A DNA stretch of 64,000 nt, taken from contig JAPOXK010000011.1 in assembly GCA_026707145.1 (NCBI GenBank), positions 35,908 to 99,907 on the forward strand. The letters are read 5' to 3'. The DNA is from Chloroflexota bacterium. GTDB lineage: Bacteria; Chloroflexota; Dehalococcoidia; Bin125. This document shows, one piece after another, positions 33,779 through 56,552 of this stretch (position 1 is the stretch's first letter; each line of letters opens with the position of its first letter). The translations under genes and the position numbers were made by a program. The notes beneath the pieces were generated by a model. That model was not told the origin of the DNA, did not search any database, and saw only the letters and a list, made by a program, of their open reading frames with translations.

Positions 33779-36700
33779 ATGCGGCTGCCGATCGCGCGCT
33801 GGGCGCTGGTCCTAGCTGGGGCGGCCCTGCTGGTCGCGGCCGCGCTGGACGGACCCGCCCGCCCGCTGCTCGCGCAAGAGTCCGGCGAACCGCTGGAGGA
33901 GGTGGCAACGGATCGGGCTGCCCTGATGGCGCTCTACGCCGCCACGGACGGCCCCAACTGGACGAACGACCACCACTGGGGCAGCGGCGAGCCGCTTGGG
34001 CTCTGGGACGGCGTCACCGCCGATGCCCAGGGCCGCGTCATCCGTCTGATACTTTCTGGCAATAACTTGGTCGGTACCCTGCCGCCCGAGCTGGGCAACC
34101 TCGCGAACTTGCAGCTCCTCTGGCTTGGTCAGAACCAATTGAGCGGGCCGCTGCCATCCGAGTGGGGCCGTCTCATCAACCTCGAGCACTTGGCCTTGGC
34201 GAGGAATCGGTTGATCGGGCCGCTGCCCGGTGCGCTCGGCGACCTTGTCAACTTGGAGCACCTGGACCTCGGCTACAACCAGTTGAGCGGGCCGCTGCCG
34301 CCCGAGTGGGGCCAACTCGCCAGCTTGGAGTACCTGGACCTCAGCTACAACCAGTTGAGCGGGCCGCTGCCGCCCCAATGGGGCCAGCTCACCGCCCTGC
34401 GAAACCTTCAGCTTCACGTCAATCACTTGAATGGCCCGCTGCCGCCCGAGTGGGACCAGCTGACCAACTTGGGTCTCCTTTACGCTGGCGGGAACCGCTT
34501 GACCGGTCCGCTTCCCGCCGAGTGGAGCAAGCTCCCGCGCCTGACCTCTCTCGGGCTGAGCGGGAACCGCTTGACCGGTCCGCTGCCAACCGAATGGAGC
34601 AAGCTCGCCGGCCTCACCAGCCTGGGCTTGGGGGGCAATCAGCTCAGCGGGCCGATCCCGCCGGGGTGGGGCATTCTCTCCAATCTCTACCACCTCAGTC
34701 TCGCTCCGAATCCCGGCTTGAGCGGATGCATCCCGTACGGCTGGCGCTATCTGGTGGCCGGTCCCGATCCCTGGCGGGTCCCCCGCACGCATGACCTCCA
34801 CCGCTTGGCGCTGCCCTTCTGCCTGCTGCGCGATCTGCGACTGCGCGGTACGACCCTCGATCCGCCTTTCGCCGGCGGCACAGCCCCCCACGCTGCCCCC
34901 AGGGCCTACACCGCCGGCGTGGCCGCCAGCATCACCGAGACGGCCGTGACGGCGACGCTCCACGATCCCGCCGACCGTCCGATCATCCGCAGAGGAGGAC
35001 GAACCTACGCCAGCGGCGAGCCACTGCTACTCGACCTGGGACCGAACCGCATCACGATCATGGTCACTCCTGCGGATACCACCTTCCCCATCGCGGAGGT
35101 CGTCGTCGTCACGGTGACGCGCGGGCCGGCCGAGACGCCCGAAGCGCCGGACCCCGCCGACGTGGCAGCGGACCGGGCCGCGCTGCTGGCGCTCTATGAC
35201 CAGACGGACGGGCCGAATTGGACGGCCGACAGCAACTGGGGCAGCGATGCGCCGCTCCGTGATTGGCACGGCGTCACGATCGGCGTCGACGGCCGTGTCG
35301 GCGGCCTGGCGCTTGCGGGCAACAACCTAACGGGAACTCTGCCGTCCGCGCTGGGGGACCTCGGCAGCCTGACGGAGCTGGATCTGGGCGATAACCGATT
35401 GCAGGGGGCGATTCCAGAGGCGCTGGGCAACCTCACCGACTTGGAGTCCCTGTCGCTGGACGGCAACGAGTTGAGCGGGCCGATCCCGGTCCTCCTGCAC
35501 CGCCTCCGTAACCTGCGGGAGCTGGATCTGAGCGGCAATCGCTTCAGCGGAGTGATTCCGGCCTGGGTGGACATGCTCGTCAACCTGACCGACATCAATC
35601 TCGCGGAGAACCGGTTGAGGGGGCTGCTGCCGACCGCGCTGGGCCGCCTCGCCGACTTGGAAACCTTGGACCTCGGCGGCAACCTGTTCTGGGGGCTGCT
35701 GCCGGCCGCGTGGAACGCACTCGCCAACCTGGAGTCCCTCTCCCTTGCCGGTAACCGTTTACGCGGGCCGCTGCCGGCCGCCTGGGGGGAGCTCGTCAAC
35801 CTGGGGGCGCTGGACCTGAGCGGCAACCGCCTGGAGGGGCCCCTGCCGGCCGCGTGGGCTGAACTCACCAATCTGGAGGCCCTCTCGCTTGCCGGCAACG
35901 GCTTCCGCGGGCCGCTGCCGGCCGCCTGGGGGGAGCTCGTCAACCTGGAGGCGCTGGATCTGAGCGGCAACCAGTTGGAAGGACCCCTGCCACCCTGGCT
36001 GGGCGCTCTCGCCGATCTGGAGGTCTTGGACCTCAGCAACAACCGCTTGTACGGGCCGATCCCGGCTTCGTTGGGCAACCTCACCGGCTTGTGGTCTCTC
36101 TCCCTCGCCGAAAACCGCCTGGGTGGGCCCGTCCCGGCCGCGCTGGGCGATCTCAGCGGTCTCCGGTTCATCCGCCTCGCGGGCAACGCCCTGCAGGGGT
36201 GTCTGCCCTACGGTCTCCACGATCTGCTGGCTGCGCCGGAGCACGCGGGCCTCCCGGCCCACGACTTCTCCGCCCTGCGCCTGCCCTTCTGCCTGCTGCG
36301 CGATCTGCGGCTGGCGGACGCCACGCTGGAGTCGCCCTTCGCCGCCGACAGGGGCACCTACATCGCCGCCGTGAATCGCAGTGTGACGGAGGCGGCCCTG
36401 ATGGTGACCCTGCAGAACGCCAACGACGCCGTCACCATTCACAAGGGAGGGGAGAGCTACAGCAACGGTGCGCCGCTGCCGCTCGACCTGGGGCCGAATC
36501 GCATCACCATCACCGTCATCCCCGTGGACGGCACACCGCTGCAGAACGTCACCGTGACGCTGATCCGCTTGGCCACCGATCCGATCAGCCTGGACCTGCG
36601 GGCGGGCGGCGATCTCGTCGTCGTGCCGGCCGGGGCGGCCACGACAGCGGCCGATCTGTTCGGGGAGACGGACGTGGCCAGCGTCTGGAAATACACCCGC

Positions 36701-37423
36701 GCCACCCGGGCCTGGGACCGCTCCTACCTGCCCGCCCTCGAGACGGGGGACTTCCCCATCGTCGGCGGCGACGTGCTCTGGGTCGTCTCCCCGGTGGAGC
36801 AGACGCTGCCGGTGGCGGGGAGGCCGCCTCCGGCGTCGCCCGTCGCCGGCCCCATCACCTTGGATCTGCAGGCGGGCGGCGACCTGGTGGTCGTGCCGGC
36901 GGGGACGCCCACGACCGCGGCTGCGCTCTTCGACGGTACGGACGTGGCAGTCGTCTGGCAGTACAACCGGGCCACCCGCGCTTGGGACCGCGCCTATCTG
37001 CCCGCTCTCGGGACGGGGGACTTCCCCATCGCCCCTGGCGACGTGCTCTGGGTGGTGGCGCCGCGCGCCCTCACCGTCACCGCAGGAGCGCCCGCCGCCG
37101 CGGTGACGGGACGCGTCTACTTCGGCGGCGGGGAGGTGACCCTGCCGGAGGGCGCCGTCGTGACCGTGCGGCTGCTGGACACTTCCCTCGCCGATGCCCC
37201 GTCGACGACCCTCGGCGAGCAGATCATCCGGGACGCGGGGAGGCTGCCGCTGGCGTTCCGCGTCGGCTACGACCCAGCCGCCATCATGGAGGGCTACGAG
37301 TACTCCCTGCAGGCCACCGTCCGCCATGACGGCCGCCTGCTCTACATCAACGACACGGTGCACCCGGTGCTGACGCGCGGCGCTCCTCGGAACCGCGACA
37401 TCGAAGTCATCCGCGTGCAGTAG
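33779..37423 (+). CDS. giant secreted LRR + cadherin-like protein with two C-terminal GWNLV-type modules and a YbaY-like tail
   Basis: Signal peptide, then two tandem units of LRRNT-like cap (DRAALMALY..DGPNW), ~12 plant-type 24-aa LRRs (LxxLxLxxNxLSGPLP) and a Cys-containing C-cap (GCIPYG...LPFCLLRDL) followed by a cadherin-like beta sandwich. Two shared modules and a YbaY-like domain end the protein. Confidence 0.85.
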   Translation: MRLPIARWALVLAGAALLVAAALDGPARPLLAQESGEPLEEVATDRAALMALYAATDGPNWTNDHHWGSGEPLGLWDGVTADAQGRVIRLILSGNNLVGTLPPELGNLANLQLLWLGQNQLSGPLPSEWGRLINLEHLALARNRLIGPLPGALGDLVNLEHLDLGYNQLSGPLPPEWGQLASLEYLDLSYNQLSGPLPPQWGQLTALRNLQLHVNHLNGPLPPEWDQLTNLGLLYAGGNRLTGPLPAEWSKLPRLTSLGLSGNRLTGPLPTEWSKLAGLTSLGLGGNQLSGPIPPGWGILSNLYHLSLAPNPGLSGCIPYGWRYLVAGPDPWRVPRTHDLHRLALPFCLLRDLRLRGTTLDPPFAGGTAPHAAPRAYTAGVAASITETAVTATLHDPADRPIIRRGGRTYASGEPLLLDLGPNRITIMVTPADTTFPIAEVVVVTVTRGPAETPEAPDPADVAADRAALLALYDQTDGPNWTADSNWGSDAPLRDWHGVTIGVDGRVGGLALAGNNLTGTLPSALGDLGSLTELDLGDNRLQGAIPEALGNLTDLESLSLDGNELSGPIPVLLHRLRNLRELDLSGNRFSGVIPAWVDMLVNLTDINLAENRLRGLLPTALGRLADLETLDLGGNLFWGLLPAAWNALANLESLSLAGNRLRGPLPAAWGELVNLGALDLSGNRLEGPLPAAWAELTNLEALSLAGNGFRGPLPAAWGELVNLEALDLSGNQLEGPLPPWLGALADLEVLDLSNNRLYGPIPASLGNLTGLWSLSLAENRLGGPVPAALGDLSGLRFIRLAGNALQGCLPYGLHDLLAAPEHAGLPAHDFSALRLPFCLLRDLRLADATLESPFAADRGTYIAAVNRSVTEAALMVTLQNANDAVTIHKGGESYSNGAPLPLDLGPNRITITVIPVDGTPLQNVTVTLIRLATDPISLDLRAGGDLVVVPAGAATTAADLFGETDVASVWKYTRATRAWDRSYLPALETGDFPIVGGDVLWVVSPVEQTLPVAGRPPPASPVAGPITLDLQAGGDLVVVPAGTPTTAAALFDGTDVAVVWQYNRATRAWDRAYLPALGTGDFPIAPGDVLWVVAPRALTVTAGAPAAAVTGRVYFGGGEVTLPEGAVVTVRLLDTSLADAPSTTLGEQIIRDAGRLPLAFRVGYDPAAIMEGYEYSLQATVRHDGRLLYINDTVHPVLTRGAPRNRDIEVIRVQ

Positions 37424-37566
37424 CGGGCATGCCGCCGACCGTCGGCCAGCCTCTTCGGCGAACATGGCAGTGACGGTCGTGTGGAGGTACGGCCGGGCCA
37501 CGCAGGCCCCGGCGATCACCGACCAAGGTACGCACGAGAACACAAGCGAGCGCCCGTTGGCCTAGC

Positions 37567-38310
37567 ATGGCCGGGCCTGCGGGCCGGACGTGGCGAGTGG
37601 AGGAGCATGCGATGTCACGCGGACTCGGCGACGGAGCTTCCCAGAGAGATTTCCAGCGAGGCGGGGCCTGGGAGCGGCTGCGGCCCCGGCGCGCCGTCGC
37701 CCGCTGGGCTGCGGCCCTGGCCGGCATGGCGCTGCTGATCGCCGCCGCCTTGGCCGGACCCGCGGCGCTGTTCGCGCAGGAGGACGGCGGCGAGACGGAG
37801 GCGGCGGGCAGCGTCACCGTGATCCTGCACCCCGTCGGCGACTTTTACGTGCTGCCGGCCAGCGCGGCGCCCACGACGGCGTCCGCCCTCTTCGGGGACG
37901 TGGAGCTGTCGAGCCTCTGGAAGCATAGGACCGGCCGGGACTGGATCGCGTACGATCCCGCCACCGGCGCGGAGGACTTCTCCATCGCGGGCGGGGACCT
38001 GCTCTGGATCGTGGTCCCCCGCCTCCAGGAGATCATCGTGCCGCTGACGGAGAGCCCCGTCCCGCCCATCCACAGCATTACCCTGACCCTGCGCGCGGGC
38101 GGCGGCTTCTACCGTGTGCCGGAGGGATCGCCCACGACGGCGGCCCTCCTCTTCGGAGGCACGGACGTGACGGTCGTCTGGGGCTACAACAGCGTCTCGC
38201 GGGCATGGGACCGCTCCTATGACCCGGTCCAAAACCAGGGCAATTTCGTGATCGAAGCCGACGACCTCCTCTGGATCGAGGCGCCGCGGGCCCAGACCGT
38301 CGGCGGCTAG
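37567..38310 (+). CDS. small secreted protein composed only of two GWNLV-type modules
   Basis: Signal peptide plus two tandem copies of the module (VPAG.PTTAA.LFG...VW.Y......WD.SY.P......F.I..GD.LW), ending QTVGG. Alternative start at 37612. Confidence 0.7.
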   Translation: MAGPAGRTWRVEEHAMSRGLGDGASQRDFQRGGAWERLRPRRAVARWAAALAGMALLIAAALAGPAALFAQEDGGETEAAGSVTVILHPVGDFYVLPASAAPTTASALFGDVELSSLWKHRTGRDWIAYDPATGAEDFSIAGGDLLWIVVPRLQEIIVPLTESPVPPIHSITLTLRAGGGFYRVPEGSPTTAALLFGGTDVTVVWGYNSVSRAWDRSYDPVQNQGNFVIEADDLLWIEAPRAQTVGG

Positions 38311-38317
38311 ACTCACG

Positions 38318-41300
38318 GTGCTCCCATGGCGATCATGGCAAGCCGGGACGGGTGCGATGCGGCACGGACGCAGCGACGCGAAGGGCCGTGGCAGGGACGG
38401 CGTCCCCTGGGCGCGGCTCTCCAGCGCGCGCCTGGTGTTGGTCCTGGCGGCTCTGGCCCTGCTGATCGGGGCCGCGCTGGCCGGCCCTGCCCGCCCCCTG
38501 CGCGCGCAGGAGGCCTCCGGCACGGCGGCGACGGACCGGGCCGCCCTGATGGCGCTCTACGAGGCCACGGGCGGCGCTCGCTGGACGGTCAATCACAACT
38601 GGGGCAGCAGCGCGCCGCTCGGCACCTGGCACGGCGTCACGGTCTCCGTCCAGGGCCGGGTCACCCATCTCTCGCTCTTTGCCAACAACCTGATCGGGGG
38701 CGTGCCGGACGAGCTGGGCAACCTCGACGCCCTGACCTATCTCTCGCTGGAGGAGAATCGCTTGCGCGGCCCCATTCCCGCCGCGCTGGGCGACCTCACC
38801 GCCTTGGAGTCCCTGGCCCTGGGCGGCAACGGCTTGAACCGGGAGATCCCGGACGCCTTGGGCCGCCTCACCCGCCTGCAACTGCTGTCGCTGGCCGATA
38901 ACCTCCTGCGGGGGCCGCTGCCGGACTGGCTCGGCGATCTGACCGATCTCCAGTACCTGGCGCTGGACTCCAACGATCTCAGCGGGCCGCTGCCGGCGGC
39001 CCTGGGCGGCCTCACCGAACTGCGGGAGATCGATCTGGGCGATAACCGCTTGAGCGGGGAGATCCCGGCCACGTTCGGCAACCTCGCCGAGCTGCGGTAC
39101 CTGGCGCTGGACTCCAACCAGCTCAGCGGGGGGATTCCGGCGGCCCTGGGCGGCCTCGCCAACCTGGAGGATCTGCACCTGGACGGCAACCGCCTGACCG
39201 GGCCGATCCCGGCGGCGCTGGGCGGCCTCCCCCACCTCTACACGCTGCGCCTGCAGGGCAACAGCTTGAGCGGGGGGATTCCGGCGGCGCTGGGCGGCCT
39301 CGTCAACCTGCAGCAGCTTTGGCTGGGGCGGAACCAGTTCAGCGGGCCGCTGCCGGCGGCGCTGGGCGGCCTCGCCAACCTCACGGAGCTGCGCCTGGAG
39401 AGCAACCGCCTGAGCGGGGGGATTCCGGCGGCCCTGGGCGGCCTCGCCAGCCTGGCGGCGCTCGACCTGGGCGGCAACCGCTTGGAGGGGACGATCCCGC
39501 GCGCGCTGGACGATCTCTCCAGCCTGGAGTTCATCCGCCTCACGCCCAACGCCGTGTTCACGGGCTGCATCCCCCACGGCCTGCGCGCCCTGCTGGCCGT
39601 CCCCGTGCCCGAGGGCGCCCCCGCGGCCCATGATTTCTCCTCCCTGATCCTGCCCTTCTGCCTCCTGCGCGACCTCCAGTTCAGCGACGTGACCCTCGAA
39701 CCGCCCTTCACCGGCGGCACGACCCCCTTCATCGCCGTGACGAATCCGGCCGCCGCCTACAGCGCCGCCGTGCCCGGCAGCGTCACGGAGACGGTCGTGA
39801 CGGCGGCCCTCTACGATCCCCGCGACGAGATCACCATCCACCTGGCCGGGACGATCTACGCCAGCGGCGACACGCTGCCGCTCAGCCCGGGGCCGAACCG
39901 CATCACCATCGAGGTCGCGCCCGCGGACGAGGCCCTCCCGATCCCGGAGTTCGTGGTCGTGACGCTGACGCGCGGGACGGACGCGCATCCGGTCCCGCCC
40001 GATCACGGCGGCGAGGCGGCCGACCGGGCCGCGCTGCTGGCGCTTTACGCCGCCACGGACGGCCCCAACTGGTCGGCCGGCGACAACTGGGGCAGCGACG
40101 CGCCGCTCGGGAGCTGGCAGGGCGTCACCACGGCGGCCGACGGCCGCGTGATCAGCCTGACTCTGGCGCACAACAACCTGACGGGGACCCTGCCGGCCGC
40201 CCTGGGCGACCTCGCCGATCTGACGGAGCTGGATCTGAGCGGCAACCGCTTGAGCGGATCGCTGCCGCCGGCGCTGGGCGGCCTCCGCAACCTGGAGGAG
40301 CTGGACCTGCACGACAACCGCTTGAGCGGATCGCTGCCGGCGGCGCTCGGCGGCCTCGTCAATCTGGAGACGCTGGACCTGGGGGGCAACCGGCTGAGCG
40401 GGGCGATTCCGGCGACCGTGGGCGCCCTCGTCGATCTGGAGACGCTGGACCTGCACGGCAACCGCCTGCGCGGGCCGCTGCCGCCGGCCCTGGTCGGCCT
40501 CACCGATCTGGAGGAGCTGGACCTGGGCGGCAACCGCCTGCGCGGGCCGCTGCCGCCCGCCCTGGGCGATCTCACCGATCTGGAGGAGCTGGACCTGGGC
40601 GGCAACCGCCTGGACGGGTCGCTGCCGGCCGCGTGGAGCGATCTCACCGATCTGGAGGAGCTGGACCTGGGCGGCAACCGCCTGGACGGGCCGCTGCCGC
40701 CCTGGCTGGGCGACCTGGCCCATCTGGAGCGGCTGGACCTGCGCGACAATCGCTTCCGGGGGCCGCTGCCGGCCGCCCTGGGCGGCCTCGCCGACCTGCG
40801 GATCATCCACCTGGCGGGCAACGCCCTCAGCGGCTGCATCCCCCACGGCCTGCGCGCCCTGCCGGCGACGGCCGGGGGCGAGCCGGCCCACGACCTGTCC
40901 GATCTGGGTTTGCCCTTCTGCCTGCTGCGCGATCTGGAGCTGACGGGCGCCACCCTGGATCCTCCCTTCAGCGCCGCGGGCGAGGCCTACAGCGCCGCCG
41001 TGGGCCGCAGCGTGACCGAGACGGTCCTGACGGCGGTCCTGCACGACGACGGCGACGCCGTCACCATCCGCACGGGCGGGCAGGACTACGCCAGCGGCGA
41101 CGCCCTGCCCCTCGACCTGGGCGCCAATCCCATCACGGTCACCGTCGTTCCCGCGGACGGCACGCGCGCGCAGACCGTCACCGTCACGGTGACCCGCCTG
41201 ACCGTCGATCCGATCACCCTGCACCTGCGCGAGGGCGGCGACCTCGTGCCCGTGCCGGCGGGGGCGGCCACGACGGCGGCCGCCCTCTTCGGGGGCGCGG

Positions 41301-41446
41301 AGGTCTCCAGCGCCTGGCGGTACAACCGGGAGACGCGGCGCTGGGATTTCCCCTACCTGCCGGCCAGCGACCGGGGCAGCTTCCCCATCGCGGCCGGCGA
41401 CGTGCTCTGGGTGGTGGCGCCCCGCGCCCAGACGGTCGGCGGCTGA
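38318..41446 (+). CDS. giant secreted LRR + cadherin-like protein, paralog, with C-terminal GWNLV-type module
   Basis: Same duplicated LRRNT-LRR-Ccap-cadherin architecture as 33779..37423. One C-terminal module ending QTVGG. GTG start 7 nt after the upstream stop (alternative ATG at 38357). Confidence 0.85.
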   Translation: MLPWRSWQAGTGAMRHGRSDAKGRGRDGVPWARLSSARLVLVLAALALLIGAALAGPARPLRAQEASGTAATDRAALMALYEATGGARWTVNHNWGSSAPLGTWHGVTVSVQGRVTHLSLFANNLIGGVPDELGNLDALTYLSLEENRLRGPIPAALGDLTALESLALGGNGLNREIPDALGRLTRLQLLSLADNLLRGPLPDWLGDLTDLQYLALDSNDLSGPLPAALGGLTELREIDLGDNRLSGEIPATFGNLAELRYLALDSNQLSGGIPAALGGLANLEDLHLDGNRLTGPIPAALGGLPHLYTLRLQGNSLSGGIPAALGGLVNLQQLWLGRNQFSGPLPAALGGLANLTELRLESNRLSGGIPAALGGLASLAALDLGGNRLEGTIPRALDDLSSLEFIRLTPNAVFTGCIPHGLRALLAVPVPEGAPAAHDFSSLILPFCLLRDLQFSDVTLEPPFTGGTTPFIAVTNPAAAYSAAVPGSVTETVVTAALYDPRDEITIHLAGTIYASGDTLPLSPGPNRITIEVAPADEALPIPEFVVVTLTRGTDAHPVPPDHGGEAADRAALLALYAATDGPNWSAGDNWGSDAPLGSWQGVTTAADGRVISLTLAHNNLTGTLPAALGDLADLTELDLSGNRLSGSLPPALGGLRNLEELDLHDNRLSGSLPAALGGLVNLETLDLGGNRLSGAIPATVGALVDLETLDLHGNRLRGPLPPALVGLTDLEELDLGGNRLRGPLPPALGDLTDLEELDLGGNRLDGSLPAAWSDLTDLEELDLGGNRLDGPLPPWLGDLAHLERLDLRDNRFRGPLPAALGGLADLRIIHLAGNALSGCIPHGLRALPATAGGEPAHDLSDLGLPFCLLRDLELTGATLDPPFSAAGEAYSAAVGRSVTETVLTAVLHDDGDAVTIRTGGQDYASGDALPLDLGANPITVTVVPADGTRAQTVTVTVTRLTVDPITLHLREGGDLVPVPAGAATTAAALFGGAEVSSAWRYNRETRRWDFPYLPASDRGSFPIAAGDVLWVVAPRAQTVGG
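40440..40740 (+). repeat. near-identical 72-bp in-frame tandem repeats (LRR units) inside LRR gene
   Basis: ctggaggagctggacctgggcggcaaccgcctg(c/g)gcgggccgctgccgcc recurs four or more times with a 72-bp period (one 24-aa LRR each). Confidence 0.7.
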
Positions 41447-41639: not shown

Positions 41640-42206
41640 ATGCGCCGCGCCAAGATCGCCACGGCTCTCTTGGTCGCCCTCCTGGCCGTCCTCGCCTCGA
41701 CGGCGGCCCTGGCCGCCAACACCGGCGGCGCCTCCGACGGCGACGGCGACCCCGCGATCATCGACGCCGACTGCCTCGCCTGGCGGGTCGCCTACACCAA
41801 CGCGGCCGTCGGCCGCGACGGCTCGGTCGACTTCGAGCTCTACGAGGCGGCCCTGGCCTTCCGCGACAGCCTCTGCGACCAGACCTCCTACCCGATCTTC
41901 GAGAACGTGCGCGGCCCCGACTGCCTGGGCGCGGACGTGCATGTGCGCATCACCCACGACAACCCGGGCCAGGTCCGCGCGGACGGGCGCCCCGTCGCCC
42001 CGGTCTGGTCCGTCCGCATCGCGCCCTGGGACCCGGATCGCTTCGGCGGCGCGGGCGGCAGCGTCTTCAACTTCTGGCAGGGCTTCCAGGGCCGCGACGC
42101 CGAGCACTTCGCCCGCGCCCTGGCCGGGCGGGTCGCCGAGAACCTGCGATCGCAGGGCTTCACCGTCGCCCACTTCGCCTACGAGGCGGGCCTTCCCCAG
42201 GGCTGA
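41640..42206 (+). CDS. secreted hypothetical protein
   Basis: Signal peptide MRRAKIATALLVALLAVLASTAALA, 188 aa. Last gene of the LRR operon. Confidence 0.55.
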   Translation: MRRAKIATALLVALLAVLASTAALAANTGGASDGDGDPAIIDADCLAWRVAYTNAAVGRDGSVDFELYEAALAFRDSLCDQTSYPIFENVRGPDCLGADVHVRITHDNPGQVRADGRPVAPVWSVRIAPWDPDRFGGAGGSVFNFWQGFQGRDAEHFARALAGRVAENLRSQGFTVAHFAYEAGLPQG

Positions 42207-42443
42207 GGCGCGCTGAGGCCCTTCCCCGCGCCCATCCCGGCGGCTCGCGCGCGATCTTCACGGACGCCGGATACGACGGCCGGGTGCGGGAGATCGCGCG
42301 GGGGATGTGCGGGAAGCGATTACGGTATCAAGAGTTGGATCGCCGAGCTCGACGGGTAGTGCGACTGGAACCGTGAGGAGATGGCGTGAGACGGGAAAAT
42401 CAGCCCCGAGTCATGCTGGGACGCCGGCCGTGACGCCTTTCTG

Positions 42444-42471
42444 TTGACGGAAACCGCACTTCCGTTATTGT
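42444..42471 (+). promoter_or_regulatory. sigma70-like promoter (TTGACG-N16-TATTGT) with embedded inverted repeat ACGGAA-N7-TTCCGT
   Basis: Read directly: ttgACGGAAaccgcacTTCCGTtattgt, about 40 nt upstream of the 42513 ORF. Confidence 0.35.
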
Positions 42472-42512
42472 GCCCGCGCTACGATCCCGCACAAGCATGC
42501 ATATATAGGTAG

Positions 42513-42806
42513 GTGCCGATGTCTGCGTCTCAGCTCATTGCAGAGGCCATGCAGCAGGTGGGATCACCAGAGAGTATCCGGCAGGACCTGGAAGAGTTCA
42601 GGGAAAGTGCGCTCGCCCTCTCCTCTGATCATCCCCGACTCATTGATGAGTATCGTGAGGAGTGGGTTGCCGTCCATAGGGGAGAGGTGGTCGCGCACGG
42701 GCGGACAATGGCTGCGGTACTCAAGCAGGTCGACGCTGCGGGACTGCCGCGCTCCAAGATCGTCGTGCGATTTATCACCGAGGACCCGCGTACTCTCATC
42801 CTGTGA
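42513..42806 (+). CDS. small protein, partner of retropepsin-like protease (DUF5678-like?)
   Basis: 97 aa. Overlaps the downstream gene by 4 nt (ATGA). Family assignment is from memory and tentative. Confidence 0.45.
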   Translation: MPMSASQLIAEAMQQVGSPESIRQDLEEFRESALALSSDHPRLIDEYREEWVAVHRGEVVAHGRTMAAVLKQVDAAGLPRSKIVVRFITEDPRTLIL

Positions 42807-43255: not shown

Positions 43256-43399
43256 TCGCATATTTTCCTTCCCTCCGTAACGGGAGAGCCTGTGGCTCTC
43301 TGTGCCACGCCGTGCTGGGGGACAGGAAGGGGATGAGGCATCCTCGCCCGCCGTTCATAAAGCCCGGCCGCGCCGCCGCCCGATCATCCTCCGGCGCGT

Positions 43400-47576: not shown

Positions 47577-48158
47577 ATGGCGAGTATTCGTAAGGGGTGG
47601 CGCATGGCGGTGGTCGCGAGCGCGGCCGCCCTCGCCCTGGCGCTTGTCACGAGCGCCTTCGCGCAGGCGCCGCCCGCTCCCGACCATGCGTTCTACGGCA
47701 GCGCCGCCGACGGCTCCGGTGCCACCATCGACGGGGAACCCGCTCCAGACGGGACCGTCGTGACGGCCACGAACCAGGACGGCCAAGCCGTGGGATCGGA
47801 CACCGTCAGTGGCGGCATCTGGATGATCAACGTCGGCAGTGACAACGCCAGCGTCACCTTTGCCGTCAACGGCATCGCCGCCGAAGGATCGCACGGCGTG
47901 ACAAGCGGCAGCGTCAGCGAGGTCACCCTGGCGGTGACCACGGCCGCGGACGAGCCGGACGAGCCGGTCGAGCCGGTCGAACCACCGGTCGAGCCGGTCC
48001 AGCCGGAGACGCCGACCGGGCTGCCCAACACGGGCAGCGGCGGCCTGGCGGACACCAGCGGCGGCTTCCCGCTGCTGCCGGTGGCCCTGGTCATCTCGGC
48101 CCTGGTCGCGCTGGGCGGCGTGGCGGTCACCCGCCGCGCTGGCATCGGCGCGCGCTAG
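47577..48158 (+). CDS. LPXTG-anchored small surface protein
   Basis: Signal peptide and a PEPVEPVEP linker. The sorting signal is LPNTG, a hydrophobic segment FPLLPVALVISALVALGGVAV and a positive tail TRRAGIGAR. Confidence 0.75.
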   Translation: MASIRKGWRMAVVASAAALALALVTSAFAQAPPAPDHAFYGSAADGSGATIDGEPAPDGTVVTATNQDGQAVGSDTVSGGIWMINVGSDNASVTFAVNGIAAEGSHGVTSGSVSEVTLAVTTAADEPDEPVEPVEPPVEPVQPETPTGLPNTGSGGLADTSGGFPLLPVALVISALVALGGVAVTRRAGIGAR

Positions 48159-48445: not shown

Positions 48446-50149
48446 ATGCAGATGCGCCCAGCACCGGACCCCAGCACGCGTTTCCGCGGCGCGCCCCTGG
48501 GCGGGCGCGCGCGGCGCCCCCGCCTCTTTCTGCTCCTGTTGCTGACGGCGCTGGCGGCCGGGCTGCTCCTGGCGCTGCTGCCCGCCGCCACGCAGGCGGC
48601 GCCGGCCTCGGTGCGCTCCCTCAGCGCCTCCCCGACCAAGGTCGCGGCGGCCGGCGGCCAAACCACCATCCACGTGACCGTCGCCTGGAACGCGGCCACG
48701 GAGAGCGGCCTGCGGGTGGCGCTGGCGAGCACCCTGGGCGCCTTCGGCAGCGCCGGCGGCCCCAGCCGCGTCAGCGTGGCGCTGAGCGACCAGGGGGACG
48801 GCACGGCCCTCGCCACGGCCACGCTGGTGGGCGACGGGCGGCTGGGCAACGCCGCCGTCACGGCCCGCGTGGGCGCCAGCGTGCGCTCGGCCACGGTCAC
48901 CTTCGTGGGCGCGCCGGCCACGGTCGTCTTCGAGACGCCCAGCGCCGACGCCGTCCTGGACGCGGCCACGCCGTCGCGCCTGATCGTGCAGGTGCGCGAC
49001 AGCGTCGGCGTCGAGGTGTCCGGCGCCTCCGTCACCTTCACCACCGACGCCGGCCAGCTCCTGGCCAGCTCCACGCCGCCCGCCGCCGACGCGGCCGCCT
49101 CCGCGGTCTACACGATTCGCAGCGACAGCCGGGGCAAGGCCTCGGCCTTCCTCCACGGCGATCCCGGCCCCGTGCGCGTGCGCGCCGCCGCCGGCGCCGC
49201 CACGGCCAGCCTTTCGCTGACGCTGCACGGCCCCCCGGCCCAGCTGGAGCTGACGGCGCTGACGCGGCGGGTCAACCTGGGCGATACGCCCTTCGCCGCG
49301 CCGGCGGGCACGCTGGTGGCCTCGCTCTTCGACGAGGGCGGGCGGCCCGTGCCGCGCGTCAGCGTGCGCTTCAGCAGCGACGTCGATGGCGTCACCGTCG
49401 TGCAGAGCGGCGAGGGCGAGTCCGGCGTCACGGGCGCCAGCGGGCGCGCCGCGGCCCACGTCTCGGCGGCGGACGCGGCGGCAGCCGGCGCCGTGACGAT
49501 CGCGGCCTGGGCGGACGAGCTCTCGGCCAGCACCACGATCCAGATCGTGGGGCCGGCCACCGATCTGCGGCTGGCGATCACGGCCGATGACGAGGCCGGG
49601 GCCTACCGCGTGGTGGCGCTGGTCAGCGACGCCGGCGGCCGGGCCGTGCCCAGCGGCTACCGGGTGCGCTTCAGCGCCGTCGGCGCGACGCCCGATGCCG
49701 AGGCCACATTCGATCCGGTCACGGCCGAGACGGTGAACGGCCTCGCCTTCACGCGCTTCACCCTGGAGGGCGACTCCCTCGACGGGGTGCGGGTGCGGGC
49801 CCAGGTCTCCGATATCGAGATGGACGTGCGCGACAGCGCTCCCCTGCCCGCGACGGACGCGGCCAGCATCGCGCTGGCGGCCGGGCTGAACCTGATCACC
49901 TGGCCGGGCCCGTCGCTGACGGCGTCGGCGGCGGTGGCGGCGATCGCGGAGCAGGTGACGGCGCTGTGGCGCTACGACGAAGCCGACGGCTGGCAGGGCT
50001 ACTTCCCCGGCACCGATCTGGGAACCGACTTCGAGCTCGCCGCGGGCGACTCGCTGGCGGTCACCGCCAGCGCCGACGTCGTCTGGACGGTCCCCGAGGA
50101 GGAGGAGGACGAAGAGGACGAGGACGGAGAGGGCGGGGACGCGGGCTAG
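48446..50149 (+). CDS. secreted Ig-like repeat protein with divergent C-terminal module and poly-acidic tail
   Basis: Signal peptide, repeated ~95-aa Ig-like segments (VTFTTDAGQL, VRFSSDVDGV) and the module variant LAAGLNLITWPG...WRYDEADGWQGYFP...GDSLAV. Ends EEEEDEEDEDGEGGDAG. Confidence 0.7.
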   Translation: MQMRPAPDPSTRFRGAPLGGRARRPRLFLLLLLTALAAGLLLALLPAATQAAPASVRSLSASPTKVAAAGGQTTIHVTVAWNAATESGLRVALASTLGAFGSAGGPSRVSVALSDQGDGTALATATLVGDGRLGNAAVTARVGASVRSATVTFVGAPATVVFETPSADAVLDAATPSRLIVQVRDSVGVEVSGASVTFTTDAGQLLASSTPPAADAAASAVYTIRSDSRGKASAFLHGDPGPVRVRAAAGAATASLSLTLHGPPAQLELTALTRRVNLGDTPFAAPAGTLVASLFDEGGRPVPRVSVRFSSDVDGVTVVQSGEGESGVTGASGRAAAHVSAADAAAAGAVTIAAWADELSASTTIQIVGPATDLRLAITADDEAGAYRVVALVSDAGGRAVPSGYRVRFSAVGATPDAEATFDPVTAETVNGLAFTRFTLEGDSLDGVRVRAQVSDIEMDVRDSAPLPATDAASIALAAGLNLITWPGPSLTASAAVAAIAEQVTALWRYDEADGWQGYFPGTDLGTDFELAAGDSLAVTASADVVWTVPEEEEDEEDEDGEGGDAG

Positions 50150-50199
50150 GAGCGGGGCGGGTGGAGCCGTAGCTGTCCAGCCCCCGCGCCGCGACTGTC

Positions 50200-50985
50200 T
50201 TGGACATGGAGCCCTATCGGGTCTATATCGACGAGTCGGGCGACCATAGCTATAAGGCGACCACGCACCCGAGCAAGCGGTTCCTGGGGTTGATGGGGTT
50301 CGTTGTCGAGTCCCGCTACTACATCGATACCGTCTCCGCTCGTCTTGAAGCGCTGAAGCGAGCACACTTTCGCTTCGAACCCGATGACCCGGTCATCCTG
50401 ACGCGTAAGCGGATCATCGATAAGAAAGGGCCGTTCGGCGTGCTGGCCAACCCGGTAGCGAACGCCGCCTGGGAGGACGCCGTCATCGAGTTTTTCGCCG
50501 CGGGCGACAGATCCAAGATCGGGTACTTCACCGTCGTAATGGATAAGGAGCGCCATAAGCAGCGCTACCCGGCTGCCCGCTGGGACCCGTATGGTTACGC
50601 GGCGGCGGTGCTGCTGAACCGGATCAGAGGGCTGTTGTATTTCCGCAGGGGCAAAGCCACCGCTTCGGTGATTGCCGAGGCGCGTGGAAAAAGCGAGGAC
50701 GCACAATTGCAGGCCGCGTACGTTGAGATGCGTACCGACGGATCCGGCGACCGCCCTGCGGCGGAATACCGCGCGACTTACCCCGAGGCTGAGATTCGGT
50801 TCCGGAGGAAGGCCGAGAACATTCCCGGCTTGCAGATCGCCGACCTCTTGGCTGCAGCCCAAAAGGAAAAGGTAATCGTCGACAACCAGCTGCCACTCGC
50901 GAGACCGAGTAGCATGTTTACACAGCGCCTGAACGAAGCCGTGCGTCCGTTCGTGAACCGATACGGGCAGTACCTGTTGGAGTAG
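50200..50985 (+). CDS. DUF3800 family protein
   Basis: N-terminal YRVYIDESGDHSY matches the DUF3800 hallmark (Y.DESG). 261 aa. Lower-GC flanks. Confidence 0.65.
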   Translation: MDMEPYRVYIDESGDHSYKATTHPSKRFLGLMGFVVESRYYIDTVSARLEALKRAHFRFEPDDPVILTRKRIIDKKGPFGVLANPVANAAWEDAVIEFFAAGDRSKIGYFTVVMDKERHKQRYPAARWDPYGYAAAVLLNRIRGLLYFRRGKATASVIAEARGKSEDAQLQAAYVEMRTDGSGDRPAAEYRATYPEAEIRFRRKAENIPGLQIADLLAAAQKEKVIVDNQLPLARPSSMFTQRLNEAVRPFVNRYGQYLLE

Positions 50986-51230
50986 TGGTGAGATGATGCG
51001 GCAGGGATAATACAGGAGAGATAAATGCAGAGAGCGGGCCGAAACCCGCTCCTCGCACGCTGGCCCTTACGGGCCATCCTTAATGCATATTAGAACATGT
51101 GTGCCTGTGAAAATCAATATGCGCTAGGCAAGGCCGCGGAACGTTTCCCATCACCGAGCGGTCGGCCTCGACGGATCGGATGGCATGACGAAGGCGTGAC
51201 GGTAAGGCGGACACGAGAAAGAAGAGCGCC

Positions 51231-51464
51231 ATGACGGTGGGCAGGCTCTATCCGACGGAGGCCCTGCAAGAGCGGTGGGAGCGAGAAGGGAACGACCGAG
51301 ATTTCGTTTTCTTCGACATGCACTCCGGTGACTACGAGATCAACGCGGACTACACGACCGCGAAGGCCAACCTGCTGGCGCGCCGTCCCAATGCCGCCAT
51401 CTACATCCAGGATATCGGCGGCCACAAGGTAATCAGGAACGTTTCGTTCCGACCTGTTCGGTGA
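51231..51464 (+). CDS. hypothetical small protein
   Basis: Only a 77-aa ORF with a plausible Shine-Dalgarno. Lower-GC context. Confidence 0.3.
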   Translation: MTVGRLYPTEALQERWEREGNDRDFVFFDMHSGDYEINADYTTAKANLLARRPNAAIYIQDIGGHKVIRNVSFRPVR

Positions 51465-51533
51465 TCTCCGGGAAGGTCATTCGAGGTCCCTACGGATTCG
51501 ATCCGCATATCGCCGTTCAGACGCCGCGCGCCC

Positions 51534-51806
51534 CTAGTGTTGCGCCGCCGGCTTGCGCAGGTCGCAGACGTGATCGGCTAGCTCGGTCCTGGTGCGGCAG
51601 AACCTGCAGACCGCCACCCAGCCGCAGCGGCTCTCCCGCAGGTGCATCCAGATCCAGAAGGCGGGCGTCCGGGAGGAGCTCTCTCCCTTGGCGAAGTGGC
51701 AGATCCCGCAGAGGGAGGCACCCGTGAGGGCGGGCCCGTAGCTCTCGGGCTGCTGGATGACGGGCGTCTCGATCGGCTGCTCCGTTGGCGGGTCCAAGGC
51801 CGTCAT
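51534..51806 (-). CDS. Cys-rich small protein (zinc-ribbon-like)
   Basis: 90 aa with CGIC...C...CRFC...C. A GGAGG Shine-Dalgarno sits 9 nt upstream of the ATG. Confidence 0.4.
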   Translation of the reverse strand: MTALDPPTEQPIETPVIQQPESYGPALTGASLCGICHFAKGESSSRTPAFWIWMHLRESRCGWVAVCRFCRTRTELADHVCDLRKPAAQH

Positions 51807-51959
51807 CGCTTGCCTCCGCGCTCGTCCTCTCCCCCACGCCGGGACGTGCACTCTAGCGCTTGGAGGCCTCCCTTGCCGCCGGCCCGGCCCCTCCCGTTCC
51901 GTTCCCTGCCGACCGCCATTGTTATGTTGCCGTTCTGCTAGCATTGGCGGGCGGTCCGC

Positions 51960-52301
51960 ATGGCGAATCGGAGGGGACGGATGGATCAGCGGGGCGAGGT
52001 CGGCGCGACGGTTCTCTTCACCGTGACCGTCACCTGCGTCTCCGCCGGCGACGGCTGGTTCTGCATGGGCAGGGAGACCGGCGTCGTGTCGCGGGGCGCC
52101 ACGGAGGACGAGGCCGTGGACCGCAACGCCGCCATGCATCAGGCTCTGGTACGGCGGCTCAAGCGGGACGGCGCCATCGCCCTGCTCGGCTTCATGAGCG
52201 AGCGCGGCATCGACTTCACGCTCGACGAGGAGCCGGACGCCCAGTCCGTGTTCACGCTCTCGCGCAAGGGCACGCGGCGCGTGATCGAAGCGGCCGCCTA
52301 G
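51960..52301 (+). CDS. HicB-like antitoxin (UPF0150 fold)
   Basis: AGDGWFCMGRETGVVSRGATEDEAVDRNAAMHQAL parallels the HicB pattern DGGYWAECPDLPGC.S.GDT.EEAL.N..EAI. Confidence 0.5.
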   Translation: MANRRGRMDQRGEVGATVLFTVTVTCVSAGDGWFCMGRETGVVSRGATEDEAVDRNAAMHQALVRRLKRDGAIALLGFMSERGIDFTLDEEPDAQSVFTLSRKGTRRVIEAAA

Positions 52302-52313
52302 GCGGGAGATCGC

Positions 52314-52823: not shown

Positions 52824-54056
52824 ATGCAGCGCGATCGCACGCGGAAAGGGCTTGCCGTCTGGATCCTGGCGCTGGTCGCGCTGGGGACGTGGCTGGGCGC
52901 CGGGATGGCCCTGAACGCCGGCCTGCGCTACACCCCGGCGTCGGCCGTGAACGGAGAGGATCCGCTCCCGGCCCTGATCACGGTGACCCCGTCGGAGCGC
53001 ACGGCCCTCCCGCTCGGCGCCCCCGGCGAGGAGAACCCGTCCAAGGAGTGGACGGTGCGGGTGACGGACGCCGGCGGCGCCGGCGTGGCCGGCCTGCTCG
53101 AAGGCTCCTTCCGCCGGCTGTACGTCACTAGCGAGTTCGGCAGCCGCCTGCACGTGCGCTCCATCGCCGATGCCGCCGCGGCCGGCCGGGCGGGTGACTA
53201 CACCGTCTCCCTGGCCGCCGGCGCCGGCGCCGCGCCCGGCTCCCAGCACAACGCCCGCGTGACGGTGATCCGGCCCGGCTTCGGTCCGCTGACGGCGCTC
53301 ATCAACGTGGTGATCGGGAACCCGGGGGAAACCCTTGGCCCCGAGACCGGCGACGGCTCGGAGGACGATGCGGGCGGCGGCGCAACCGGCATCGCGGCGC
53401 ACAGCACGCACGTCACCAGCTATCCGCCTCTCGAACGGCTGGGCGACACCTTCCAAATCCGGGTCGCTCCCGGCGGCACGGTCTGGGTCCGGGTCACCTT
53501 CTTCGATGCGGAGTTCGACGCGGTGCCGGACGGCACCGAGGTCACGATCCACGAGATCGGCGCCAATCCCGGGATCGTCGTCGCGCTCCCGCGGGGCACC
53601 TGGCGCAGCCTGCTCGCCTTGCCCACGGCGCCGGGCGTCCCCGCTCTCGACTCCGTCGAAGAGTCCGCTCTCGGGATGGATCGGGGCGTGACCGAGGACG
53701 GGTCGGTGCACCTGCTCTACATCGCCTCGCCCGTGCCCCCGCCAAGCGCCGCGCCGCAGCGGATCATCGCGATCTCGGGGAATGCCTCCGCGCTGATCGA
53801 GATCTTCGTGGGCGCGGCCGACGACGAGCCCTACGTGCTGCCCCTCAAGCAGGGCGGGCAGTTCGTCCGGGCGAGCTTCGAGGCCCGCGCGGCCGACCTC
53901 TTCGGGGATCGGGTGACGGTCGCCTGGAAGTACGATGGCCCGGAGGCCGGATGGATCGCCTATATCCCGGCCATCGGCCTCGCGAACTTCGCCATCGCGC
54001 CCGGCGATTTCCTCTGGGTCGTCTCGCCGGGCGGCCAGACGCTCGCGGTGCCGTAG
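52824..54056 (+). CDS. secreted hypothetical protein with C-terminal GWNLV-type module
   Basis: TM/signal N-terminus and an unknown ~300 aa region. The terminal module is VTVAWKYDGPEAGWIAYIPAIGLANFAIAPGDFLWVV. GAGGGA Shine-Dalgarno. Confidence 0.7.
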   Translation: MQRDRTRKGLAVWILALVALGTWLGAGMALNAGLRYTPASAVNGEDPLPALITVTPSERTALPLGAPGEENPSKEWTVRVTDAGGAGVAGLLEGSFRRLYVTSEFGSRLHVRSIADAAAAGRAGDYTVSLAAGAGAAPGSQHNARVTVIRPGFGPLTALINVVIGNPGETLGPETGDGSEDDAGGGATGIAAHSTHVTSYPPLERLGDTFQIRVAPGGTVWVRVTFFDAEFDAVPDGTEVTIHEIGANPGIVVALPRGTWRSLLALPTAPGVPALDSVEESALGMDRGVTEDGSVHLLYIASPVPPPSAAPQRIIAISGNASALIEIFVGAADDEPYVLPLKQGGQFVRASFEARAADLFGDRVTVAWKYDGPEAGWIAYIPAIGLANFAIAPGDFLWVVSPGGQTLAVP

Positions 54057-54167
54057 CAGCGTTCTCCCATTGCTCTTCTGGCCTCTCGGGAGCGACGCCC
54101 ATACGATTGTCTGGAGCGGCCGGTGGCGGTGGCCGGCTTTGCAAGCAAGAGCCGGCCGGGAGTCTTG

Positions 54168-56552
54168 ATGCGGCCTCTCTTGGCAACTCTCGCACGGCTT
54201 GCCCTCTTCGCCCTGATCGTGATCGTGGTCGCCCTGCTGATCTTTCTGCCCCTGGCGGCCACGGGCGGCTTCGTTCTCTTCCCCGCCGCCGCCGCGCAGG
54301 ATGGCGCGGGGGAGGCGCCGATCTTCGTGGTGGCGACGCCGGGCGACGGCGGCGACGGGGTTTGCGACGTCTCCTGCACGCTGCGCGACGCCCTGTTGGC
54401 GGCGAACGCGGCTGGGGGCGCCCGCGTCCATTTCGCCATCGGCGCCGGCCCCGTGCGTCTCTTCCCCGTCCGCCCCCTCCCCACCATCAGCGGCCCCGGC
54501 ACGGTGATCGACGGCACGACCCAGCCGGGCTGGCGCGGCGACCCGATCGTCATGATCGACGGCGCGGCCGCCGGCGCGACGAGCGGCCTCGTCTCCATCG
54601 CGCCCCGGGTGGAGTTCCGCGGCCTGGTCGTCGGCAACTTCGCCCACTACGGGCTGGCCGCCCGGGGCACGGCCGCGGTCGCCAACCGCTTCCTGGGGAA
54701 TTGGGTTGGGACGGACCCGTCCGGCCGGGTCGCGGCGCCCAACCGGCGGGGCGGCATCGGCGTGGTCGACGGCGCCGCGCAGGCGCTCGTGGGCGATAGC
54801 TGCGAGGGCTGCGGCAACCGGCTGGCGGGAAACAGCGCGCCCGGCCGCTCGGGCTACGGCGTGGTGGTCGGCGGCGCCGGCCGCACCGGCTTCGGGCTGG
54901 TGGTCGGCGGCGCCGGGAGCTCGGCGGCGCAAGTGGTCAACAACACGATCGGGCTGGGAAGCGACGGCGCGGCGCTGCCCAACGACGCCGGCGTGCTGAT
55001 CGTCGACGGCGGTTGGGCCGAGATCGGCGGCGCGGGTCCGAACGAGCGCAACCTGATCAGCGGCAACCGCTTGGCCGGGATCGAGCTGCGCGACGCCGGC
55101 AGCAAGACCATGCAGATCCAGGGCAACTGGATCGGGCTCGCGCCCGGTGGCGCGGCGACGGTCGGCAACGACGTGGGCATCTTCATCCACGGCGCCCGGG
55201 AGGGGACGGCGCAGGTGATCGTGGGCGGGCTGCAGGCCGCCAGCCGTAACGTGATCAGCGGCAATCGCGTGGGCCTGGCCCTGGAGCGGGGGGCGCGGGC
55301 GATCGCCGTGATCGGCAACTGGATCGGCCTCAGCGCCGACGGCGCGTCGCCGCTGCCCAACGAGGAGGACGGCGTCTCCGTGCTGCGGGACACCCGCCAC
55401 ATCACCATCGGCGGCTCCACCGTGGCGCAGGGGAACTACATCATGAGCGCCGGCAACGGCGTGACCGTGGAAGGCGCGGCGGGGGTCTCCATCCAGAACA
55501 ACGGCATCGGCGTCATGCCGGACGGCTCGCTGGTGGGGAGCCTGGCCGGGATCATGCTGCGCAACGGCGCCCGGGAGACGATCGTTCGCAGCAATCGCAT
55601 CGGGGGCAGCGCCGCCGGCGTGCTCCTGCTGCACGAGAGCACGGTGCGCAACCGCGTCAGCCGCAACCTCTTCCTCGGCAACGCGGGGATCGCCATCGAC
55701 CTCGGCGGCGACGGCCCCACGGCCAACGACCCCGGCGACGCCGATGCCGGGCCCAACGGCCGGCTCAACACCCCCGTCATCCTGGGCGCGAGCCCGGAGC
55801 GCGTGCACGGCAGCGCGTCTCCCGGCGCCGTGGTCGAGCTCTACGCCGTGGCCGCGCCCGGCTTCCCCCAGCTCGACCGGAGCGGCTTTGGCCCCGGCGG
55901 CCGCTACCTGGGCGAGACGGTCGCGGACGCCGCCGGCGAGTGGTCGCTGGAGGCCGAGGTCGAGCCAGGCGCGGCCGTCAGCGCGATCGCGATCGACGCG
56001 GCCGGCAACACCTCCGAGTTCGCGGCCAACTTCGTCGGGGAGCAGATCGCGCTGTCGCTGGAGGCCGGCTTCACGCCCGTCGGCTGGTTCGGGGAGGAGA
56101 TAGAGCCCGCGCTGGCCTTCGAGACGATCGCGCATCGCCTGGAAGCGGTCTTCCGTTACGACGCCGGCGCCCAGCGCTGGGAGACGTTCCGCCCCATCCT
56201 GCCCCGCCACAGCAGTCTGGGCCAGCTGCGGCGCGGCGACGCGCTCTGGCTGCTGCTCTCGCCCGGTCCCCCGGTCGCATGGGCGCCGCCCGCCGCCCTG
56301 CCCGTCAGCCGCGCACTGGCCCTGCAGCGCGGCTTCAACTTCGTCACCTGGGCCGGGCCGCCGCGCGCGGCGGCGGAGGCGCTGGCGCCGCTCGCCGGTC
56401 GGATCTCCTCGGCGTACCACTGGAACCCGGAACGCGGGGCCTTCGAGATCGTCTTCCACTCGGCCCCCCTTCCAATCCGCGAGGTGATCCTGCAGCCCGG
56501 CGACGTGCTCTGGCTGAGCATGACCGAAGTGGCCGCCTGGCAGCAGCGCTGA
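54168..56552 (+). CDS. secreted right-handed parallel beta-helix repeat protein with two C-terminal GWNLV-type modules
   Basis: Signal/TM N-terminus and many ~22-aa beta-helix coils (GNRLAGIELRD, GNWIGL, ISGNRVGLAL). Ends with two module copies (GFTPVGWFG...GDALWLL and GFNFVTWAG...GDVLWL). Confidence 0.75.
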   Translation: MRPLLATLARLALFALIVIVVALLIFLPLAATGGFVLFPAAAAQDGAGEAPIFVVATPGDGGDGVCDVSCTLRDALLAANAAGGARVHFAIGAGPVRLFPVRPLPTISGPGTVIDGTTQPGWRGDPIVMIDGAAAGATSGLVSIAPRVEFRGLVVGNFAHYGLAARGTAAVANRFLGNWVGTDPSGRVAAPNRRGGIGVVDGAAQALVGDSCEGCGNRLAGNSAPGRSGYGVVVGGAGRTGFGLVVGGAGSSAAQVVNNTIGLGSDGAALPNDAGVLIVDGGWAEIGGAGPNERNLISGNRLAGIELRDAGSKTMQIQGNWIGLAPGGAATVGNDVGIFIHGAREGTAQVIVGGLQAASRNVISGNRVGLALERGARAIAVIGNWIGLSADGASPLPNEEDGVSVLRDTRHITIGGSTVAQGNYIMSAGNGVTVEGAAGVSIQNNGIGVMPDGSLVGSLAGIMLRNGARETIVRSNRIGGSAAGVLLLHESTVRNRVSRNLFLGNAGIAIDLGGDGPTANDPGDADAGPNGRLNTPVILGASPERVHGSASPGAVVELYAVAAPGFPQLDRSGFGPGGRYLGETVADAAGEWSLEAEVEPGAAVSAIAIDAAGNTSEFAANFVGEQIALSLEAGFTPVGWFGEEIEPALAFETIAHRLEAVFRYDAGAQRWETFRPILPRHSSLGQLRRGDALWLLLSPGPPVAWAPPAALPVSRALALQRGFNFVTWAGPPRAAAEALAPLAGRISSAYHWNPERGAFEIVFHSAPLPIREVILQPGDVLWLSMTEVAAWQQR

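Follow-up and report, generated by a model that had tools for sequence, protein, structure and literature searches.

An undescribed beta-rich module, usually in tandem pairs, on secreted proteins of Chloroflexota and its possible role in retention on the cell envelope

The stretch of DNA analysed here, a 64-kb window with a G+C content of about 70% from contig JAPOXK010000011.1 of the Chloroflexota assembly GCA_026707145.1, encodes eight otherwise unrelated secreted proteins which share one homologous module of about 80 amino acids (aa). Sequence searches and structure prediction indicate that the module represents a large undescribed domain family that is concentrated in Chloroflexota and has a confidently predicted fold without a solved relative. 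It is tentatively regarded as a non-catalytic binding module through which secreted adhesins and enzymes would attach, without covalent bonds, to a lineage-specific part of the envelope of the producing cell itself (a wall glycan, S-layer or sheath as candidate ligand), and which would thereby provide a surface-display route parallel to sortase/LPXTG anchoring.

The module was delineated with a profile hidden Markov model (HMM) seeded with three copies picked by motif and then iterated. The three-copy seed recovered the remaining copies with independent E-values (i-E) of 1.5e-9 to 0.22, and iteration converged on 12 copies in eight open reading frames (ORFs), all on the plus strand, with the copies scoring at least 77 bits and everything else below 10 bits. 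An independent HMM was built from 245 external modules, each less than 50% identical to any copy in the window. When it was compared with six-frame pieces of the window, the top 12 matches were the 12 window copies; type A copies (types defined below) scored 53-68 bits, type B copies 13-24 bits and one marginal copy 7.0 bits, which places 11 of the 12 at 13-68 bits. Among about 4,000 decoys, made by reversal or shuffling, the highest score was 8.0 bits. Since the window copies are the top 12 matches of the external HMM and the best decoy scores 8.0 bits, the similarity among the copies is, as judged from sequence, homology and not compositional. A first-pass annotation of the window had proposed one module on at least eight otherwise unrelated secreted proteins, with a merely compositional resemblance as the outcome that would speak against it; the external HMM and the decoys bear out the proposal, with exactly eight carriers. 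Its estimates of about 14 copies and a length of 65-75 aa are replaced by 12 copies and, in addition, a relic of about 50 nt that is out of frame (37440-37490), and by about 80 aa once '(Q/E)TVGG' is counted as the last beta-strand.

Two types can be distinguished. Type A follows the pattern 'L.L..GWNLVGW.G…WD…F..Y.P…GDGLW….W' and is found in the S8 peptidase, the Big_1 protein and the parallel beta-helix protein, whereas type B, with the pattern 'GGDLVVVPAG..TTAA.LF…VW.Y…W…Y.P…GDVLWVV.P.AQTVGG', is found in the leucine-rich repeat (LRR) proteins, a small protein and proteins of unknown type. The ends are conserved, as 'W.QPAP' in type A and 'QTVGG' in type B. The profiles of the two types align end to end (97.4% probability, E 1e-11), and the topologies predicted for them by AlphaFold2 are identical. 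The residues that hardly vary (L, G, P, L and W) resemble core positions, and no conserved charged or cysteine motif was found in the module alignment. No two copies exceed 82% DNA identity, so they are not recent duplications.

AlphaFold2 modelled the module pair of the beta-helix protein (170 aa, 32-sequence alignment) with a predicted local distance difference test score (pLDDT) of 96.0 and a predicted template modelling score (pTM) of 0.88, and the lone type B module of LRR protein 2 (79 aa, 62 sequences) with a pLDDT of 96.1 and a pTM of 0.84. The predicted topology is beta-beta-short helix-beta-beta-beta-beta, i.e., six strands and one short helix. As the lone module is modelled confidently, the models describe an autonomous, beta-rich extracellular domain that folds by itself, and the tandem pair is predicted to be a rigid unit.

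The module is covered by no Pfam-A or NCBIfam model, whether in the proteins of the window or in a diverse set of 100 homologs, and isolated modules yielded no match to either collection at E-values up to 10. In their source records the homologs are named merely 'hypothetical protein' or after passenger domains, and a literature search for the motif strings returned nothing. Fold searches gave no match at a convincing Z-score. A sequence search of the PDB returned designed Kelch proteins through summed sub-threshold matches of about 24 residues (per-stretch i-E above 100), which were rejected as a common strand motif. The C-terminal beta-sandwich domains of fervidolysin were considered as the origin of the module and discarded, as 1R6V was returned by neither fold search. 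Neither a match to PF02080 (RCK_C/TrkA_C) nor a convincing fold match to that family was obtained; RCK_C is a cytoplasmic ligand-sensing domain from a wholly different context, and the resemblance is probably analogous.

The known anchoring and sorting families were considered individually. The models for the C-terminal domain (CTD) of the type IX secretion system (T9SS; PF18962 and TIGR04183) matched none of the window proteins, isolated modules or 100 homologs. Regarding SLH (PF00395), there was no Pfam match, and the module is about 80 aa long, paired and acidic (median isoelectric point (pI) 4.6) as opposed to the triple basic SLH repeats of about 55 aa. Matches to PF13457 or the SH3b families (GW/SH3b) and to the dockerin family PF00404 were likewise not found in Pfam, and for PEP-CTERM and GlyGly-CTERM there was neither an NCBIfam match nor a C-terminal hydrophobic helix after the module. 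The first-pass annotation had recognised the module as none of SLH, GW, T9SS CTD, PEP-CTERM, GlyGly-CTERM or LPXTG; this agrees with the searches of Pfam-A and NCBIfam, which assigned no known anchoring family to the window proteins or to the 100 foreign homologs.

When 1.84 billion representatives of 50%-identity clusters were searched exhaustively with HMMER, 5,478 proteins matched at E ≤ 1e-3, of which 1,172 also did so at E ≤ 1e-10. Exactly two adjacent copies were present in 137 of the best 153 matches, and four or five copies in eight, in a list which favours multi-copy proteins because scores are additive. GTDB species genomes were scanned with an exact peptide pattern taken from a tight alignment, which biases the scan to members carrying 'GWNLVGWT'. 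All 45 confirmed loci of this pattern-seeded scan belong to Chloroflexota, mostly to Dehalococcoidia and Tepidiformaceae with a few from Chloroflexia and Anaerolineaceae. In one Dehalococcoidia genome of 2.0 Mb, seven loci together contain at least 12 ORFs with the module. The family is acidic; 76% of its modules have a pI below 6. The rigid tandem pair as the normal unit, the huge family and the acidic character all go beyond the first-pass annotation. More than 5,000 clusters at 50% identity, with sometimes a dozen or more genes in a small genome and without a counterpart in Pfam, NCBIfam or the PDB, amount to a sizeable annotation blind spot. A modular domain shared by secreted proteins is in itself a familiar kind of thing, and nothing established is overturned.

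The passengers in the window and among the homologs are all of extracellular type: S8, trypsin/HtrA, M23, DPBB/RlpA, Peptidase_MA, LRR, Cadherin-like, Big_1, Kelch, FG-GAP, PKD, beta-helix and CAP. Observed architectures comprise FG-GAP-[pair]-trypsin, M23-[pair]-DPBB, Kelch-[pair], [pair]-Peptidase_MA-CarboxypepD_reg, CSLREA-choice_anchor_Q-…-[pair], choice_anchor_D x4-[pair] and M23-…-[pair]; stand-alone secreted proteins of two modules form a family of their own. A protein of about 600 aa with the order M23 peptidase-[module pair]-DPBB (RlpA-like) recurs in four Dehalococcoidia loci, in one (L016) as assigned by Pfam and in the others (L019, L022 and L025) as judged from similar length and pair position, which points to a conserved enzyme of cell-wall remodelling equipped with the module.

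Retention on the cell's own envelope is a plausible role, somewhat short of an even chance; binding as such and an own-envelope ligand are both inferred from context as the most likely option. In its favour are the secreted context throughout, the tandem-repeat format, the restricted lineage and the many copies per genome, eight module ORFs lying in this 64-kb window. Repeated wall-binding modules (three copies of SLH or CWB2, variable numbers of LysM or GW) behave in the same way. The combination of LPXTG, hydrophobic helix and basic tail is absent from all 153 module proteins and from the eight in the window, C-terminal transmembrane (TM) helices are present in about none, and neither SLH, LysM nor PG_binding is among the listed partner families (those matched by at least two of the 100 homologs). 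The pair fills the C-terminal slot after the NCBIfam 'choice-of-anchor' D and Q domains, families that are named for their pairing with alternative anchoring or sorting tails. It also stands between or after peptidoglycan hydrolase domains (M23-[pair]-DPBB; M23…[pair]), a position usually held by wall-targeting domains. Like the module, the non-covalent wall-binding repeats of monoderms (SLH, CWB2, GW and LysM) are short tandem modules at either end of unrelated secreted enzymes or adhesins, present in multiple copies per genome, enriched in lineages and found alongside sortase/LPXTG; the module differs in the lack of a sequence match, in its predicted fold and in being acidic instead of basic and often internal, and its binding is putative.

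Several observations weigh against envelope retention. SLH, GW and CWB2 modules, which bind anionic polymers of the wall, are basic, whereas this family is acidic. An internal position of the pair, seen in 18 of the 45 full-length two-copy ORFs taken from other genomes, fits a generic binding or structural domain equally well. At least one named homolog comes from Acidobacteriota, and the taxonomic restriction is partly due to the exact-pattern scan. Neighbour clustering across the 45 loci, dominated by orthologous loci and wrong-frame ORFs, did not find a conserved partner gene, and a scan of viral contigs with limited sensitivity did not find a viral relative (endolysin fusion).

The 45 two-copy ORFs also bear on the proposal that the module is a C-terminal sorting or secretion signal, read and perhaps removed by dedicated machinery in the manner of a T9SS CTD. 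The window itself lends this some colour: the module is at the extreme C-terminus in six of eight proteins, its termini ('QTVGG', 'W.QPAP') are conserved, and a beta-rich module of about 80 aa on diverse, mostly C-terminally tagged secreted passengers resembles a T9SS CTD. Family-wide, however, the pair stands at the C-terminus of 13 ORFs, at the N-terminus of 12, where it directly follows the signal peptide, and inside another 18, so that the extreme C-terminus obligate for T9SS substrates does not apply and 30 of 45 ORFs carry the pair at the N-terminus or internally. The proteins already have Sec-type signal peptides, no model for T9SS, PEP-CTERM or GlyGly-CTERM matched, and conserved neighbouring machinery was not found at the loci. 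The usual tandem format and the Chloroflexota host are further differences; Chloroflexota are generally regarded as monoderm, and T9SS is unexpected there. Sorting is thus largely refuted by the position in the protein and is considered very unlikely. Of the anchoring or sorting role suggested in the first-pass annotation, surface anchoring or binding is still the best guess, while sorting is not upheld; the comparison with T9SS CTDs drew on a C-terminal position that is local to the window.

The variable position, often between other domains, is what would be expected of a structural spacer, stalk or stabilising domain without a specific ligand, comparable to the Ig-, PKD- or PPC-like domains which follow many secreted proteases. 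The lack of a conserved charged or Cys motif and the core-like character of the near-invariant residues fit such a role as well. A strict tandem-pair format or stand-alone secreted proteins are rare for spacers, however, and spacers freely co-occur with LPXTG or TM anchors, which module proteins do not; a purely structural role is therefore rated as unlikely.

A further candidate reading is a lectin- or CBM-like adhesion module (CBM, carbohydrate-binding module) that would direct proteases and adhesins to an external target, such as glycans of the host or sponge matrix or polymeric substrates. The aromatic richness of the module, the stand-alone two-module secreted family and the link of type B to LRR/Cadherin-like proteins would suit this, and CBMs and small jelly-roll domains (CBM6, 2cdo; PM2 P2, 2vvf) are among the closest known systems. 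Yet glycoside hydrolases, the usual companions of CBMs, are not among the listed partner families, the family seems restricted by lineage and not spread by substrate, and no fold matched at a convincing Z-score. Adhesion to an external target is possible, if rather doubtful.

The predicted pair and the copy numbers in the window raise the question of assembly between proteins. Two copies are present in the S8 peptidase, LRR protein 1, the 232-aa protein and the beta-helix protein, and one each in LRR protein 2, the Big_1 protein and the proteins at 45614-47476 and 52824-54056. These last four might complete the pair between molecules, with the 232-aa protein as adaptor. The prediction of the pair as one rigid unit (pTM 0.88), the single copy in four of eight window proteins while pairs dominate the family, and the position of the small two-module gene between both LRR genes would accord with this, but the lone module is predicted to fold confidently (pLDDT 96.1) with no need of a partner, and the list of best matches is biased to two-copy proteins. 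Protein-protein assembly has accordingly been given a low probability, similar to that of a spacer. A more specific version, self-complementation, is less probable still: two modules would have to pack into the rigid pair of the model, and pairing between molecules would link the single-module proteins to each other or to a secreted two-module adaptor. Eukaryote-like LRR/cadherin adhesins would then be displayed on a sponge symbiont by an extracellular assembly specific to Chloroflexota, built on a fold with no solved relative and with no separate cohesin-type partner. Dockerin/cohesin systems resemble the module in that a short module occurs on many secreted proteins encoded close together; dockerins are calcium-binding, alpha-helical, duplicated EF-hand-like domains of about 70 aa, whereas the module is beta-rich and without an identifiable cohesin-like partner.

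The eight carriers all begin with a signal-peptide-like hydrophobic segment and, like the LPXTG protein and the relic at 37440-37490, are encoded on the plus strand. The S8 peptidase gene (13205-15658) encodes a signal peptide, a fervidolysin-like prodomain (PF22148), the S8 domain (PF00082) and two type A modules, at 15140-15400 (copy 1, with 'GWNLVGW'; 59 bits with the external-only HMM) and at 15401-15655 (copy 2, at the extreme C-terminus). LRR protein 1 (33779-37423) consists, according to Pfam, of two units of plant-type LRR plus Cadherin-like domain, followed by two type B modules (copy 3, 36578-36823; copy 4, 36848-37090) and a YscW-like domain (about 37091-37405). The 232-aa protein (37612-38310), whose gene sits between the two LRR genes, comprises only a signal peptide and two type B modules, copy 5 at 37807-38055 and copy 6, with the QTVGG end, at 38071-38307; it is identical to NCBI MCY3886604.1 ('MAG: hypothetical protein OXG19_02715 [Chloroflexi bacterium]'; MAG, metagenome-assembled genome). 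LRR protein 2 (38357-41446, starting at GTG 38318 or ATG 38357) again has two [LRR + Cadherin-like] units and ends in the single type B module modelled alone (copy 7, 41207-41443), also with QTVGG. The secreted protein at 45614-47476 (start at 45338 or 45614) has no Pfam domain at threshold and one type B module with an ETVGG end (copy 8, 47243-47473).

The Big_1 (Ig-like) protein (48446-50149; PF02369) carries one type A-like module (copy 9, 49853-50101; 53.5 bits with the external HMM) followed by an acidic tail of about 15 aa. A secreted protein of unknown type (52824-54056, as read from the sequence) has one type B-like module, copy 10 at 53826-54053. The parallel beta-helix (NosD/Beta_helix) protein (54168-56552) contains by Pfam a Big_6-like domain and the two type A modules modelled as a pair, copy 11 at 56040-56294 and copy 12, at the extreme C-terminus, at 56301-56549. 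The LPXTG protein (47577-48158), a module-less sortase substrate with LPNTG, a hydrophobic stretch and a basic tail, lies within the cluster; its sequence indicates that the organism also uses sortase anchoring.

Much of what the first-pass annotation had said of these proteins is retained. The S8, LRR/Cadherin-like, Big_1 and beta-helix passengers are matched by Pfam, three proteins end in (Q/E)TVGG, and the LPXTG protein is present as described. The extreme C-terminal position, given there as nearly constant, holds for all but LRR protein 1, where the YscW-like domain follows, and Big_1, where the acidic tail follows. Of the two supposed Ig-like proteins, Big_1 is confirmed and the protein at 45614-47476 is unsupported at the Pfam threshold, and only one (52824-54056) of the two secreted proteins listed as unknown carries a module.

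The locus is present in five assemblies, including ERZ23497053 'ROBB21-1_SAMN13943207' and GCA_034428695.1. As the ROBB21 tag matches Robbins et al. 2021 on sponge microbiomes, the source bacterium is probably a sponge symbiont. Some MAG names in the GTDB scan match sponge-study tags. Chloroflexota occur in large numbers in soils, sediments, oceans and sponges, and their envelope and their display of surface proteins are poorly understood. If the module is a surface-retention module, it marks the displayed proteome of mostly uncultured bacteria. MAGs from sponges are enriched in LRR and cadherin-domain genes, and it has been described as unclear by what route repeat proteins of eukaryote-like type get to the host (Robbins et al. 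2021, PMC8163846). The module sits on such LRR/cadherin-like 'eukaryote-like' proteins, which are thought to mediate host interaction, and may thus bear on how sponge symbionts display them. Being small, self-folding according to the models and easy to express, it makes the hypothesis directly testable.

LRR proteins 1 and 2 belong to what we take to be the plant-specific LRR class, i.e., eukaryote-like proteins. Both contain internal duplications of a unit made up of the N-cap 'DRAALMALY..TDGPNW…W.GVT', 24-residue repeats 'L..L..L.L..N.LSG.IP' and a Cadherin-like domain, and both have sub-threshold NCBIfam matches to the Xanthomonas effectors XopAE, XopAC and XopL and to internalins. LRR gene 2 (38318-41446) varies in length across the five assemblies (loci L004-L007: 986, 1095, 1119 and 1143 aa, versus about 1029-1042 aa here), which points to variation in repeat or module number between strains. 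The YscW-like domain of LRR protein 1 (37091-37405, about 105 aa) belongs to PF09619, a type III secretion lipoprotein chaperone family (E 1.6e-24); it is an odd partner in a presumed monoderm and is also present on two of the 100 homologs. A near-identical signal peptide ('…ALLIAAALAGPA..L.AQE') is encoded in LRR protein 1, the 232-aa protein and LRR protein 2 (33779-33890, 37690-37790 and 38420-38520), which suggests that the 5' ends, like the 3' modules, share a common origin or have been exchanged. The relic at 37440-37490, intergenic and 3' of LRR protein 1, is an out-of-frame remnant of a type B module (76% nucleotide identity over 51 nt; weak HMM match), collinear with module positions 68-117, and suggests past gain, loss or recombination of a module at that junction.

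At its N-terminus the beta-helix protein (54168-56552) shows a CSLREA motif that stays below the NCBIfam threshold (TIGR04214, E 1.5e-4), and the homologs P0097 and P0124 combine CSLREA, choice-of-anchor Q and a C-terminal module. The cluster is flanked by small secreted or lipoprotein-like, module-less proteins without a Pfam match at 41640-42206 and 57317-57880. It is broken up by two islands of lower G+C content (42000-46000 and 50000-52000; 0.63-0.66 versus about 0.70-0.75 in the flanks), which contain a DUF3800 gene (50200-50985) and several ORFs without a Pfam match and which may be inserted DNA.

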